A stretch of 64,000 nt of DNA from Escherichia coli O157:H7. Lineage in GTDB: Bacteria; Pseudomonadota; Gammaproteobacteria; Enterobacterales; Enterobacteriaceae. Below are positions 18,001 to 24,000 of this stretch, one piece after another (within the stretch, counting starts at the first letter, position 1; every line of letters starts with the position of its first letter). The position numbers were made by a program. The stretch lies in assembly GCF_013167455.1 (NCBI RefSeq), contig NZ_CP038328.1; one strand, 5' to 3'.

Positions 18001-21000
18001 CAATTATTGCATTTCTCACCAGCGGTGGTAGTGCATATATCGGATAAGGATTTTCTGGTGCAAGTAAGCACATAAAAGCCTCTCTTTTCATTAATGGGTT
18101 AGTAAAATAGCAGCAAATCCCGCTACAATAGCGAAAATAGCTGCTATTCAGACCTGATGCTCTGAGAAATACAGAGCATTTGTAGATCTGATGTTTAATA
18201 AACCGATAAGGTTAATTCAGTGAAGACTGTATTATTCACCACGAAATATCATTCATATTTCTCATTCTTAATACCTCCGGAAATTATTTCACTAATACCT
18301 TTCCCCCGGTCTTTTCCCTTTCTCCAGAACCATAGTGTAAATATTAACGGCCCCACGTAAATTTCCGGGACTGCATACGTCAACCTGATTCTGACAGGCA
18401 ATTGACATCGCTGTTAATACTGACATTGCAACCAGAGTCAGAGGTACTTGTTTATTGTATTGAGCTTTAATTATTGCCTTCCCTATCATTGATGGTCATG
18501 CATATACTGAATACGACATATCCGGTTTGATGTAAGGCATAAATGCTTCCTTTTTCGTAATACGTTTCGGTTATAGCAGCAATTACCGCTACAATAGCGA
18601 CAATAGCTGCTCTTTCAACAATGAATGCTGGAAATTCTGTTTATCAATTAAACTTCTGGCTAAATTGTTCTTATGCTTCTTTTTCCTCCTGAGGTGATCA
18701 CGTGATGACAAAAACTTATCTGCTCATGGTCATATCTGAAGAAAGCGTATGTCTCACTTCGTCATTAACACCTTTGACTGCTGATCTGGCAGGTACAGTA
18801 TGTAAAGTAAGCCATTCGTCAATAGCTGATGAACGCCAGCCCACAGAACCACTACCAAGACGTACCGGCCTGGGGAAGGTTGCATCGTAGTATTTCGATA
18901 ACGGATTCATTTTTTCGTAAATTGTCGAACGAGATATACCTAACAATTGGCTCAGTTCAGGCATCCGTAAGATGCGTGAAGGAGTCCTGCAGTGTCCGGA
19001 TTGATCTGGCATTTTATCCCCCATAGTGTGGTGAACTGTCGTTACAGTTTGTATTCCCCGGGTAAATTTGTCTGCGTAAAAAAATGGGTTGAGAAAAAAG
19101 ACAATAAATAATTAAAAATCAATATGATAGAAAACGACAGCATTAGTGTTATTTTACTTTTCCCTTATCGCTGTCGATTCTCATTATCATTCATGGCAAA
19201 AAAACAGCAAAAGAGGCCCTGGTAATGACTCCTGTCAGTAGTACATGTGTTTTCGATAAATGAACCAATGGCTTTTCGTGAATTTCCAGGGAGCGTAAAA
19301 AGCAAATCGTTTTCCGGGCAGGTCGTTTGATGTGAGTACGAAGTGTCAGATTGTTGCGCTCAATGCGCCGGGTAAATATCTTGCCGACAAGATGCTTATC
19401 CTGTGGCATTTCTCTGGTATAACTGCTCCGGTTGTCTCTGGTTATCATGCCTGCGGAGAATGGCTTCAGGAATTCCGGCAACTCACGGCATGTTTCATCA
19501 GTGCGAGGACCAAAAGTGTAAGCCAGCACACCGTCAGCTTTGGTCTTATACGCGTACCAGTGCCACTGCTGACGAGCTTTGTTTTCGACAAAACTCCATT
19601 GTTCATCAAGTTCACAGATAAGTGCCACATCGACACTGGCGGCTGGAGATATGGTTACTTTACGTGGTGAGCGTTTTTTAAAGTGAGAATGACGGTGTTG
19701 ATATCCACCTTCAGCGTTCTGGAGCTATCGCGAACCCCGGCTCCGTTATGAACCATTTCAACAATTTGCTCTTTAATGCCTGGTTTTCGGGTTTCGTAGA
19801 TGTAATTCAGTTGAAATACACGTTTGCAGGATTAGCACTGGAAACGCTCATGATCTGAGGTGCTGTGATCATAACGGTACACTTTATAGGAATTACAGCG
19901 GGGAGAATATACTGTAACTGTTGCCATATGGTCTCCAGATACCAATAGAATACAACATTAATCTATCGTCAGAAGGCATCACCGGGGCCTTCTGACATAA
20001 TCTGTTAATACGTGTACTATTACCCTGTTCAGAAAATATTGATTCAAAAATGAAAACCAGTTAACAGAAAAGCAAAATGATATAATGTTAAAATTTTATA
20101 TAGTGCAATAAAAGGAGAATGTTATGTATAATTTTATCACTATAATGTATGATGTCTTTTCATGTTTTGGTGTTCTGGCTAAAAACCAGAATAGCCGTGA
20201 CATCCGAAATATTAAAAATTTTTCCTCACATCAACATTCACTGGGCGACATGTTTGATGAATTAATAAACATTATTGATAAAGAACAAGTATTGAGTAAA
20301 GAACAACGAAAAGTTATATTTAGGAGATATGAAGATCTCTATGTTAAGCTAATGCACTATTCTGTTTTTACAGACAAAACACATCAAATAATAAAACAAA
20401 AATATTTTAATGACATTGTACCAATGATTCTCGCACTCGACATCAGGAACACATATCGCCCGGATAATGAGATGGCATTTTACTATCATATTCATTCTTT
20501 TCTCACTCAGATACCGGATAATGAGGATGATATATATCATGCTGCAAGGACATATCTGCGAAATTACGTTAAGTTATGTTTATCCGGATACACGCCAGCG
20601 AATGCGCATTTCAAAGATATCTTTGATGGCGTATATGAATTCATTCGTAATATTCGCAAAAACAGTACACCAGGAAAAACAAAACTTATCGCAACTATCA
20701 ACACATGCAAAGAAACCTGTAAACATCTGCTTTATTTAAGTAATGAAGACAAGGAAAAAATAATTTCTGACTTAGATAAAGTTCAGGTTGCATGTTATTA
20801 TCTCACTATATTACTGGCTTTCGAAAGACGAACTTCATTAACAAGCACCCTGGCAACTTTATATAAAATGCTGATAAGCGAAAGAGAAGTTTCAGAATAT
20901 GAATGCCAGTTATTATATTTAACCAACCCAATAGATGTAATGAATATACTGAACAAATACATATATTACTTTCCTAATGAGAACTCACCATTTTATACAC

Positions 21001-24000
21001 TGAAAATTGACAGTGCATTATCGTGGGATGCCATTGACGCAATACGAGACTATAGTATTTCTGATATTTATCTTTATCCTGAACAAAAAACAATAAATTG
21101 TGTCGTTGAGATTGAAAACATTGTCTTTGGCGGTTACATTTATACATTGAACAACGGCGTCACATTACAAAACATAGAAAACTCTTTAAAAGATTCTTCA
21201 TGCCATTATGTCTTAAATGGCTATACAGAATTTGTTAACTGTTTGAGACAACTTACTTCAGGAAAGACTGAAAGTGTTCATCGCACCATCAATAAACTGA
21301 ACTATGAGAAATTACCTTTTGGATTTATCATTGCCGCGTTTGCTATACTAAAGATAGCATTTAAAATAAAATTCAGTAAAAATCATGTAAATATCCGAGC
21401 ATTATTAAATGACATCAATTATTTTATGACTTATCAGGGCGAGTCCATTAACCTTATTTCACTGGATCACGAATACCCAGAGTCCTGTCTTCAAAATGAC
21501 ACAAACACATATTTATTAGGAAGAGTAATATTTCTGTATAACTCAATGATTTATAAGTTCATAAACTGTCAGGAACATGAAACCAATAACATTCACTCAG
21601 CTATGATAAATAACCTATTACAGGAAGTTGATATAGCCCTTGGTAAAATAAATGACATTATAGACAGCAGAAACATATCAGCCCCCCATGAACTGGCAAA
21701 TATTCTTACCCGCGAAAAAATACTTACAACACGGGAAAAAAAAGGAAACCTGATAAGCCTGTTTGATGGATTCACTTTATTCCATTGTGTTGGAATGATA
21801 ACCTTTCTTATCCATTATCTCAGAACACCTGAAGAAAAAGTTGAAAATATATTTATGTTATATGGTGCAGATAAAAACAATAAACTACGCAGAAGACTGA
21901 TTTATGACGCACTAGGAATAATTCAGTCTCAGCAGGAGTGAAGAGTTAAACAGGCAAATTATTTTTTATAAAAAGGGGATTGTTAAGTAATCCCCTGTTA
22001 ATCAAAATACGCTTTCCTGACGATCTGATAATTATCAGCTCAATACATTTGACATAAAAGCGGTTTCTTAATTACTACTGCTACGATCACATATCAAATC
22101 ATGATCGTACAATATACATTTTCACTATTATTTATTCACAATTTGAGACATCACATAATCCGCCCATGCCTGCATCATCGGTACACGCTGCTCCAGTAGA
22201 TCAGTACGATGATATGCCGCCTCAACCTTATTTTTCAGCGTATGAGCGAGCGCCCTTTCCGCCAGATCCCGCGAATACCCCTGTTCGCTACACCAGTCCC
22301 TGAATGTTGAGCGAAAACCATGTGCCGTGGCAACTCGCCCCGGAATGTCACTGACGGCTTTCTTTTTACGCAGAAAACTTGTCAACACCATATCGGAAAG
22401 GATCTGCTGCTTTCTGGGTGAAGGGAACACCAGTTCATCATGCAGGCCACGTATATTTTCCAGAATGTAAATAGCCTGCCGGGATAAAGGAACACGATGC
22501 TGTATCCTGGCTTTCATTCTTTCTGCAGGTATAGTCCATACCCGCTTATGAAAATCAATTTCAGCCCAGCGCATTCCCCTGGCTTCGCCCGAGCGAGTTG
22601 CTGTAAGTATCACCATTAATAACAGTGCGCGGGTAACATTATAAGGTTCATCGGTATACACACTGGTCGCCACAAAAAGCGGTAACTGCCTCCAGGGCAT
22701 TGCGGGTTGGTGTTCATCACGTCCTCTTGTCTGCTGAGGAAGCAAATGGTCAACCACATCAACAGGATTTGCTACACAAAAACCGTGCGCCCATCCCCAC
22801 TGCATAACAACATGAATGCGCTGTTTAACCCGGCTTGCCGTTTCTGACAAGGTTAACCAGACTGGACGCAGTGTTTCTGCCACGTCCGCAGCCGTAATCG
22901 AATCCAGCGTTTTTGCTCCCAGTTGAGGAAACGCGTAATTCTCAAGCGTCGATAACCACTGCCTTACATGCTTTGGATTTTCCCATCCAGGAGACAGTTC
23001 TGCATGTACACGCCTGGCTGCATCGGCAAATGTTGGGATAGCGACTTTCTCAGATTCAGCCTTTTTAATCTCCAGAGGATCATCACCTGCAGCAAGTTGC
23101 TCTCGCATTATCCGGGCAGTACGTGCAGCTTCAGCAATACTGACCTCTGGGTAAGTTCCCAATCCAGCATTACGTCTTTTTTGTGTCACCGGACTTACAT
23201 AACGAAAAACCCATTTCCCCCGCCCCTTTACTGAAGAAGGATGAAGGGTCAGTCCGGTAATTCCCCCATGGGGCAATGGTTTGTCATCAGGTTTGATATG
23301 TCTTGCTTTCGTATCCGTCAATACTGCCATACGCTAATTCCCGTCACTCTGGTATGCCATCCAGTATGCCATTAGTCTCTCGCTTCACTAAGAATACATT
23401 AGATAATATCGGACAACAAAAAGTGTAATACATTGTTTATAATGAAATTATATAACACCCCTGGATTAAGTCAGATTTATTTCAGGCGGTCCCCCTCACC
23501 GCCATATTTAAAGAAGAGCTCGTACGAAAGTACGGGCTTTTTTTTCGTATATTGCACACACCGGGTGCCCCCGCCCACGTCTGTTTGGGCGAGGGGAAAT
23601 CGTGCACATCAACTGTCTGGTTGCTCAGTCAACAATCAAAATGCGCAAGAGAGTACAGAACATATATGTATTATCTGGTCACTTCCTATCACTTCCTCAC
23701 TTATTAAAATGCCCCCAACGGAAATACATGTCACATGCCATCATAAAATCGTTATGCCAGAGGAATCGACAATAGAAAAAATAGTAAATTAAGCACGGTA
23801 CATAGCAGAGTAAAAAATAGGCTTCAAACCAAATCCGCCATTCCACAAGCGTTGCCAATACCGACACCAGCGTAATCCACATCACTTCAATAACCAGCAA
23901 TATGAATAACCGAAGCCAAAGCGGCTTGGCAAAAAAGGTCGACAATGCATTTTCACTGGAGAAAAAGAGATCGATTTCCTGCAAAAAAAGCCTGCCCAAA

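Follow-up and report, generated by a model that had tools for sequence, protein, structure and literature searches.

The window analysed here, a stretch of 64,000 nucleotides from the chromosome of Escherichia coli O157:H7 (NCBI RefSeq assembly GCF_013167455.1, contig NZ_CP038328.1), carries at positions 20124-21941 a 605-codon open reading frame (ORF) that is a backbone gene of enterobacterial islands, i.e., of islands that combine a P4-type integrase gene (int) with an operon of alpA, DUF3987 (YfjI) and a Gp2-like Rep gene (YfjJ). The gene is a fixed partner of alpA, it is present as exchangeable, diverged alleles, and its product has no known fold, so that a hypothetical protein becomes a defined candidate. 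With a probability of about 0.4, we favor the reading that this product is a binding protein at the conflict interface of the island, that is, a backbone-encoded interference, exclusion or defense factor. The locus forms that end of SpLE1, the serX island of strain Sakai, at which the integrase lies; this island corresponds to OI-48 in EDL933, and positions 18000-24000 of the window are 100% identical to many O157 genomes. The features on which the argument depends are the following.

20124..21941, plus strand: the 605-aa ORF, with an ATG start; RefSeq hypothetical protein WP_000282209.1, labeled "membrane protein" in Sakai (ECs_1300)
20113..20117, plus strand: Shine-Dalgarno sequence AGGAG, 6 nt 5' of the ORF ATG, read from the sequence
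18716..19012, minus strand: AlpA-family helix-turn-helix gene by annotation (putative excision directionality factor and activator), the divergent neighbor of the ORF family
16688..18091, minus strand: YfjI-family DUF3987 protein, second gene in the alpA operon, 40% identical to K-12 YfjI
15304..15867, minus strand: inovirus-type Gp2 protein by annotation, third backbone gene, at the position that the YfjJ/YagK family occupies in other elements
22128..23330, minus strand: P4-type tyrosine integrase, convergent with the ORF across a gap of 186 bp

A preliminary description of this locus had reported a 605-codon ORF with a strong ribosome-binding site, located beside a P4-type integrase, separated from alpA by a copy of the insertion sequence IS1, richer in AT than its neighbors and free of any recognizable motif. 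Each of these observations is borne out by the data presented below, in which the IS1 copy appears as a degenerate remnant.

The ORF family has a fixed position beside alpA

A full HMMER scan against 1.84 billion representatives recovered about 20 full-length relatives of the window protein at 24-35% identity, with phmmer E-values from 4e-71 to 1e-29. The distant relatives in Enterobacterales, about 20 in number, span 22-52% identity. By comparison, a word-indexed protein search, run with the single sequence and then with a 24-sequence alignment, returned near-identical E. coli proteins only. The gene had been called an orphan, which holds in the sense that it belongs to no known family, but not in the sense of a protein without relatives.

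These relatives were used to establish the genomic setting of the family. Eight protein-anchored contexts were examined, namely those of P0023, P0025, P0026, P0029, P0030, P0034 and two very remote relatives, P0051 and P0055. Each of the eight genes is transcribed divergently from an AlpA gene (PF05930), behind which come DUF3987 (PF13148) and, in most cases, YagK_YfjJ_C. The start codons of the ORF and alpA usually lie 60-250 bp apart in the related loci. The family alignment contains no conserved 7-10-mer and was unusable as a seed for a genome scan; an AlpA alignment was therefore used in its place, with one genome per species, and returned 37 AlpA loci (numbered loci, such as L006, are cited below where they must be told apart). 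A family member was found divergent from alpA in 12 of the 12 enterobacterial-type loci (hmmsearch E 1e-43 to 1e-220), which come from Kluyvera, Xenorhabdus, Citrobacter, Pseudescherichia, Salmonella diarizonae, Edwardsiella, Enterobacter, two Providencia, Morganella, the Enterobacterales isolate CwR94 and one metagenome-assembled genome labeled Bacillota. None of the 25 loci that the same scan returned from other bacterial groups has a family member beside AlpA. The family was not found in 50,697 phage genomes, and the plasmid collection yielded only four E. coli records, whose matches coincide in position with that of the window protein.

The linkage to alpA persists where the linkage to the integrase does not. 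L006, L007 and L009 have their integrase at the other end of the module, past DUF3987/YfjJ, and the ORF remains divergent from alpA. The neighboring cargo past the ORF varies by element and includes type I restriction-modification with an SMC-like ATPase, a GAP1/DO-GTPase/GASH/SLATT cluster, CHAT and trypsin-AAA proteins, and a resolvase with RadC/CbeA genes. In addition, Mantel tests over 13 loci show that ORF identity is correlated with AlpA identity (r=0.74, p=2e-4) and with DUF3987 identity (r=0.64, p=4e-4). Given the synteny in both sets of loci, the variable integrase side and the Mantel correlation, we conclude that the ORF is a backbone gene of the island, linked to alpA, and that it lies beside int in E. 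coli only incidentally.

This conclusion bears directly on the proposal, made in the preliminary description, that the ORF is cargo in a hotspot next to int. A stand-alone defense or effector gene inserted in a variable hotspot beside the P4-type integrase would explain an AT-rich single unit with its own ribosome-binding site that adjoins int in E. coli islands, and these islands do hold diverse cargo and defense genes. However, the ORF keeps alpA but not int as its neighbor, a member of this one family occurs in 20 of 20 loci whereas the genuine cargo changes from one to the next, and the search of PADLOC gave no match. Moreover, the proteins have no signal peptide and contain 4-13 cysteines each, which argues against a secreted effector. 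The hotspot proposal has thus been largely refuted by synteny, and we regard it as highly unlikely.

In the window itself, the orientation and the neighbor of the ORF match the family pattern, but the gap between ORF and alpA is ~1.1 kb and consists of the IS1 remnant and ~260 bp of AT-rich sequence. The window AlpA is 48-78% identical to the PF05930 AlpA proteins of the other loci in the multiple alignment, and 52-80% identical in pairwise BLASTP. YagK_YfjJ_C is found at the position of the Gp2-type gene in most related loci; pairwise BLASTP detected no significant similarity between the window Gp2-type protein and the YfjJ proteins of these loci. With the P4-type int, alpA, yfjI, the Gp2-type gene and an att direct repeat, the full CP4-57-like backbone is present in the window.

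A second E. coli family member, P0026 (L007/L008 8001-9824), is only 30% identical to the window protein and lies in another island beside ycdU, in the serX region. The AlpA of this island is 80% identical to that of the window and its DUF3987 only 26%, and the module is inverted relative to int.

Three related islands illustrate what lies close to the module. They carry an H-NS paralogue in L054 (4399-4800), the GAP1/DO-GTPase/GASH/SLATT conflict cluster in L012 (9993-17283) and the type I restriction-modification genes with the SMC-like ATPase in L006 (10696-16750). On the basis of these three examples, we regard the element class as a carrier of defense-rich cargo.

Diverged alleles are found within a conserved backbone

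Across L005, L006, L009 and L019, AlpA is 78-84% identical and DUF3987 66-74% identical, and identity of the ORF product is 34-52%. The pattern is sharper for L012 versus L024, where AlpA (93%) and DUF3987 (92%) are nearly the same and the ORF product is only 39% identical. At the DNA level, these two loci are 92% identical from YfjJ via DUF3987, alpA and the intergenic region up to nucleotide 97 of the ORF, after which homology is lost. It returns solely as a 36-bp perfect palindrome with a T-run directly past the ORF stop. Since this palindrome is the sole homology 3' of the ORF in the pair, it is a candidate for the downstream recombination boundary of an allele cassette. It is terminator-like, with coordinates 9925-9960 in L012 and 8333-8368 (reverse complement) in L024. 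The same drop in homology, 19-126 nt inside the ORF, is seen in the pairs L006/L019, L019/L016 and L009/L005.

Where the ORFs can be aligned, their synonymous divergence is 0.34-0.43, compared with 0.12-0.20 in the adjacent DUF3987 or alpA, i.e., about twofold higher. In 5 of the 12 species-representative copies, the ORF is split into two or three pieces, and DUF3987 looks intact in two of these five loci (L016 and L025). Judged from these comparisons, the alleles appear to be old, deeply diverged lineages that recombined into similar backbones, each of them still functional, rather than products of simple decay. Deep allele exchange combined with constraint is typical of immunity, specificity or defense loci.

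The same evidence can be used to weigh another core function in the life cycle of the element, for example as a replication or mobilization accessory or as a helper-exploitation factor. In P4, the sid-delta-psu genes are divergent from the vis-to-alpha operon, and the ORF could be compared with them by its position on the map. Strict synteny and co-inheritance with the AlpA-DUF3987-YfjJ module would be expected of such a gene, and the elements have no recognizable packaging or transfer genes of their own. However, replacement of an allele at 39% identity within a 92%-identical backbone would be unusual for core replication or transfer genes, the gene is often pseudogenized, the family is missing from the phage genomes searched, and the fold of the predicted structure does not resemble that of Sid, of Psu or of any viral protein. 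On balance, a life-cycle function is improbable.

The window allele is intact and constrained

GC content is 0.29-0.33 along the ORF; it rises to 0.44-0.50 in int and to 0.41-0.48 toward alpA, and the surroundings as a whole have 0.43-0.50 against 0.33 for the ORF. Computed by gene, GC is 0.325 for the ORF, 0.453 for alpA, 0.425 for yfjI and 0.441 for yfjJ. This property is shared by the family, since the ORF lies below alpA and DUF3987 in 7 of the 7 loci for which GC was computed, mostly by ~3-13 points; L011 is an exception in that its YfjJ is only 2 points above the ORF.

The gene is present in 1036 of 5426 complete E. coli genomes, nearly always at >=95% DNA identity, and the exact protein occurs on at least 1000 contigs. 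With this distribution, and with relatives across Enterobacterales that are always linked to alpA, the survey of int-linked islands suggested in the preliminary description points to the alpA module as the constant feature. A diverged copy of the module, L057, allows selection to be estimated on the window allele. The two ORFs are 94.0% identical, compared with 89.5% for the IS1 remnant and 83-92% for the spacers. The ratio of non-synonymous to synonymous substitution rates (dN/dS) between window and L057 is 0.185 for the ORF, 0.05 for int, 0.06 for alpA and 0.23 for yfjI; in three other pairs of alleles, from other genera, dN/dS of the ORF is 0.24-0.28. We therefore take the 605-codon ORF to be a real gene that is probably expressed, and each allele to be under purifying selection.

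One site within the ORF deserves separate mention.

21736..21743, plus strand: A8 homopolymer, at which a 1-nt deletion cuts the diverged E. coli allele L057 to 542 aa

The tract could be a slippage-prone on/off site or a plain mutational hotspot. Shortened proteins of 541-546 aa with "95% identity" were set aside: they form single-member clusters, and the sole locus checked (P0005, L056) comes from a frameshift-rich assembly, so that all of them were treated as likely assembly artifacts.

The product is predicted to be an all-helical protein

Neither the single window protein nor a 24-sequence profile has a significant match in Pfam, PADLOC, NCBIfam, PHROGs or the sequences of PDB. For PADLOC-DB specifically, no family was reached at E<=1 by the window protein, three homologues, YfjH or the N-terminus of P0051; the check for a known defense family that had been suggested for this gene thus came back empty. 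The suggested remote-homology and structure analyses found distant relatives only, together with a confident all-alpha model that matches no known fold.

The model was built with AlphaFold2 on an 18-sequence alignment. It consists of 30 helices and nothing else, with a predicted local distance difference test score (pLDDT) of 83.6 and a predicted template modeling score (pTM) of 0.84. Foldseek found no match in the BFVD viral structures and no characterized fold in AFDB50, where the matches are uncharacterized relatives only. These come from Escherichia, Shigella, Salmonella, Leclercia, Pantoea, Hafnia, Providencia, Edwardsiella, Proteus, Citrobacter and Klebsiella, and reach Aeromonas, Tolumonas and Burkholderia at 11-18% identity; the AFDB family members superpose at template modeling (TM) scores of 0.82-0.88.

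The helices form bundles, and the members share conserved motifs, none of which looks catalytic. Conservation along the protein is uneven. The N-terminal part (residues ~1-125) and the C-terminal part (~376-575) are conserved, and the middle (~250-375) is variable and rich in indels. Only E70, G400 and N473 are invariant over the 24 members, and the isoelectric point (pI) ranges from 5.4 to 9.2 across the family. No helix-turn-helix (HTH) domain was found in the 24 members with Pfam or NCBIfam, the best result being HTH_73 at E 0.085 in one member. A candidate HD-like or metal-site motif (HQ, ALD, HIH) was rejected on the ground that its residues are not kept across the family. Homology to a transposase or a core metabolic family was rejected as well, since the window protein has no such match. 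The preliminary description had allowed that the gene might turn out to be a housekeeping or IS-derived gene, or to be poorly conserved or silent; the protein resembles neither class, and the conservation and constraint described above speak for a functional gene. Considering all these properties, the protein is probably a cytoplasmic, non-enzymatic helical scaffold or binding protein.

An inner-membrane protein, as in the Sakai annotation, was considered as an alternative. The Kyte-Doolittle profile reaches 2.04 in the 19-residue window 397-415 and ~1.6 in a second window at 543-563, and conservation within the family is highest in helix 397-417; the Sakai label probably stems from this helix. 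However, the hydrophobic run at 397-415 is unbroken for ~13 residues only and is followed by a K-rich amphipathic stretch, residues 401-420 are modeled as a helix with a mean pLDDT of ~95 within a model of high overall pTM, and the 605 residues offer no more than one or two candidate segments and no signal sequence. We consider a membrane location very unlikely.

Two relatives extend beyond the common part of the family. P0051 (L052 2467-5067, 866 aa) has an extra N-terminal part of ~310 aa, in which residues 35-185 match the N-terminal part of a model of IS481 transposases (E 3e-12, a match well short of the family cut-off); homology to the window protein does not include this extension. The other relative, a 930-aa protein of E. 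coli in AFDB, is annotated as "HTH domain-containing".

A conserved block precedes the ORF and is separated from it by IS1 in E. coli

In elements free of IS1, a non-coding block of ~45 nt lies directly 5' of the ORF start, with the consensus ...CTGAGATACTGTCCCCGTaAAAAAaCGGAAACCAACCGGAGG. Its mean pairwise identity is 69%, compared with 55-61% in the flanks. RNAalifold predicted no pairs and hence no consensus RNA structure for this block, and Rfam returned nothing relevant to an RNA element in the leader, its sub-threshold MicC-like match being outside the locus. Since backbone homology runs into the first codons of the ORF, the block may be the upstream control region of alpA as much as the promoter of the ORF.

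In the window, this arrangement has been disrupted.

19067..19087, plus strand: remnant of the conserved block, TTTGTCTGCGTAAAAAAATGG, stranded on the alpA side of IS1
~19221..19983, minus strand: degenerate IS1 remnant with a frameshift and an internal stop, between alpA and the ORF (RefSeq annotation)

After TTTGTCTGCGTAAAAAAATGG, the order is ~130 bp of unrelated AT-rich DNA, the IS1 remnant, 129 bp and then the ORF. The remnant is colinear in the L057 module, which has diverged by 10%, at the 89.5% identity given above, and an uninterrupted site without IS1 was found in 0 of the 1033 E. coli genomes with this allele. The insertion is thus ancestral in the E. coli copies of the allele. It follows that the E. 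coli allele has long been uncoupled from its native control region, and the ORF has nonetheless stayed intact and constrained. The 9-bp flanks of the remnant (AGAGGCCCT / GGGGCCTTC) resemble a decayed target-site duplication.

The region was also scanned for a covarying operator, and the candidate found there was rejected. Perfect copies of its 5-bp half-sites, TCTCA-N7-TGAGA or TGCCA-N7-TGGCA, occur in about six loci, and elsewhere the half-sites are mixed or absent, i.e., too short and inconsistent. They lie ~57 nt 5' of the ORF start in L006, L015, L016, L019, L024 and L025.

Stl of the staphylococcal pathogenicity islands (SaPIs) is divergent from the excision/replication operon, differs strongly between related islands and is expressed in the integrated state. 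By analogy with Stl or a phage immunity repressor, the ORF product could be a switch, expressed while the island is integrated, that holds the alpA-yfjI-yfjJ operon off, either through AlpA or through the shared control region with a DNA-binding partner, until an inducer such as a helper-phage protein binds the variable region and releases it. The arrangement back-to-back with alpA across 60-250 bp is what one would predict, as are the conserved ~45-nt block between the two genes and the backbone homology into the first 20-125 nt of the ORF, which is expected if the alpA control region lies there. The family is hypervariable between related elements, as are Stl proteins, and a few members (P0051 and the 930-aa E. 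coli protein) have HTH- or transposase-like N-terminal extensions. On the other hand, Stl has ~250-280 aa with an N-terminal HTH, whereas ordinary members of the alpA-partner family have ~600 aa and no detectable DNA-binding domain, and their pI is variable. In L016 and L025, the ORF is broken next to an intact-looking alpA and DUF3987, which would be unexpected for a repressor. Moreover, in all E. coli copies the ORF is uncoupled by IS1 from this control region, and both the gene and the stability of the island have been kept. Weighing these points, we consider a switch of this kind rather unlikely, although it is the strongest of the alternatives.

Proposed role at the conflict interface

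We return to the favored reading of the ORF product as a binding protein at the conflict interface of the island. The protein would act by stoichiometric binding, not catalysis, and would be made in the integrated state. It would most likely recognize and block an incoming phage or a rival related element, with the variable middle setting target specificity and the conserved ends giving the output. This reading is supported by the synteny, the co-inheritance with the backbone, the hypervariable alleles and the lack of matches to enzymes or known folds, and also by the dispensability of the gene (5 of 12 copies split), the lower GC in all loci for which it was computed and the defense-rich host islands. 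The last points also bear on the suggestion, in the preliminary description, of a novel defense or effector gene: a conflict role is compatible with allele exchange, AT-richness, pseudogenization and the defense-rich islands, but no known defense family is matched.

Several observations weigh against this role. The searches revealed no homology or fold link to any defense, exclusion or regulatory protein, and no recognizable effector module was found in the protein, so that the route from binding to blocking is unexplained. Allele exchange fits an immunity- or Stl-like regulator, or a determinant of element incompatibility, equally well. One family is kept at a fixed site, unlike the content of classical defense hotspots. 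Close E. coli alleles differ at 16 sites, of which 13 are non-synonymous and 3 synonymous, a pattern that looks neutral. Finally, promoter assignments are weak, and a consensus scan of the conserved intergenic block of L019 found no sigma-70 consensus site.

A more specific version of the favored reading is possible but doubtful. Under this version, the gene would encode a single-gene, non-enzymatic sensor-blocker with a helical fold not seen before, carried in a widespread island backbone. Its alleles would be diversified by frequency-dependent selection, each recognizing a different protein of a phage or rival element and then either stopping the invader or gating the excision and replication controlled by alpA.

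The gene is carried by ~19% of complete E. coli genomes, O157:H7 included, and has relatives throughout Enterobacterales. It could be the specificity determinant of the island, whether the specificity concerns a defense target, an inducer or the related elements to be excluded. Any such role would matter for how stably virulence and resistance islands are kept and for how they spread, and a defense role, if true, would add a new family to the catalog of defense systems.

Comparison with known systems

The host element is of a known kind, namely an island with a P4-type integrase, AlpA, DUF3987 and a Gp2-like gene, whose layout is related to CP4-57, the EARL/ROD21 islands and the Pseudomonas tmRNA islands. 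The ORF family itself belongs neither to the known defense families nor to the Stl family nor to the cargo class of P4 hotspots, and the libraries and literature searched contain no description of it.

The closest counterpart by position is YfjH of K-12 CP4-57 (gene order intA - yfjH - alpA - yfjI - yfjJ), which occupies the same slot, divergent from alpA and between alpA and a P4-type integrase. However, YfjH has 318 aa and is unrelated to the ~600-aa family (hhalign probability 0.1), and K-12 AlpA shares only 41-52% identity with the AlpA proteins found beside members of this family. Since YfjH is unrelated while YfjI is 40% identical, different AlpA clades have unrelated occupants of this slot.

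The hotspot of P4-type satellites (gop/beta/cII, between psu and int) shares with the present locus an AT-rich gene near a P4-family integrase in a defense-bearing island. The two differ in that, in the stretches examined here, neither the annotated genes nor the Pfam calls include a recognizable psu, sid or delta, and in that P4 hotspots swap unrelated systems between near-identical backbones, whereas here one family is kept and its alleles vary.

The EARL/ROD21 islands, with SEN1998 as the recombination directionality factor (RDF), and the Pseudomonas tmRNA islands, which are moved by a jumbo phage, share with the present element a backbone of tyrosine integrase and AlpA-family RDF/activator (with an inovirus Gp2-like gene in part) and a variable, defense-rich cargo; some of them have H-NS paralogues, as does L054 here (PMC8844411, PMC12595487, PMC3198454). 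A conserved ~600-aa helical partner of alpA is not mentioned in the passages of this literature covered by targeted term searches or in the single sections consulted. The ROD21 neighbor SEN1999 is reported there as 876 nt (~290 aa) and differs from the family by this length, which is the only property compared.

The host island and its neighboring genes

OI-48 is duplicated in EDL933 as OI-43, and excision of OI-43/48 by recombination between direct repeats has been reported (PMC3064760). SpLE1/OI-43/OI-48 is the O157:H7 island of tellurite resistance, urease and Iha. Relatives of the window integrase have Arm-DNA-bind_3, Phage_int_M and Phage_integrase domains, and the window integrase has been reported to be 99% identical to that of SRL-PAI (PMC3064760). 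Further features of the island are the following.

12789..15173, minus strand: IS-excision enhancer IEE, 794 aa, annotated as a TOTE conflict-system archaeo-eukaryotic primase
21974..21996, minus strand: GC-rich hairpin between the ORF and int, resembling a terminator on the int strand
23491..23504, minus strand: 14-bp att direct repeat TGGCGGTGAGGGGG (cryptic ser'X end), the island boundary on the int side; the repeat is reported in PMC3064760

IEE adjoins the Gp2-like gene, and its homologue in L057 has DEAD/Helicase_C domains; IEE is absent or truncated in other islands with the same alpA module. ARAGORN detected no tRNA gene anywhere in the window, and the int-proximal junction (23331-23700) contains only the 14-bp att repeat. 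The MicC-like Rfam match spans 23449-23553 and scores 37.6 bits, compared with a gathering score of 90.

Within the alpA operon, segments 17804-18148 and 18281-18614 are ~73% identical in tandem and represent a partial duplication of the 5' part of yfjI. The small "DUF3987 domain" ORF at 18292-18489, which related genomes have in their annotation, is accounted for by this duplication. To the right of ycdU (window 24680-29127 and beyond) lies an O157-specific cluster of ACP S-malonyltransferase, beta-ketoacyl synthases, a lipoprotein-sorting protein and an ABC transporter, which is outside the island and unrelated to the ORF.

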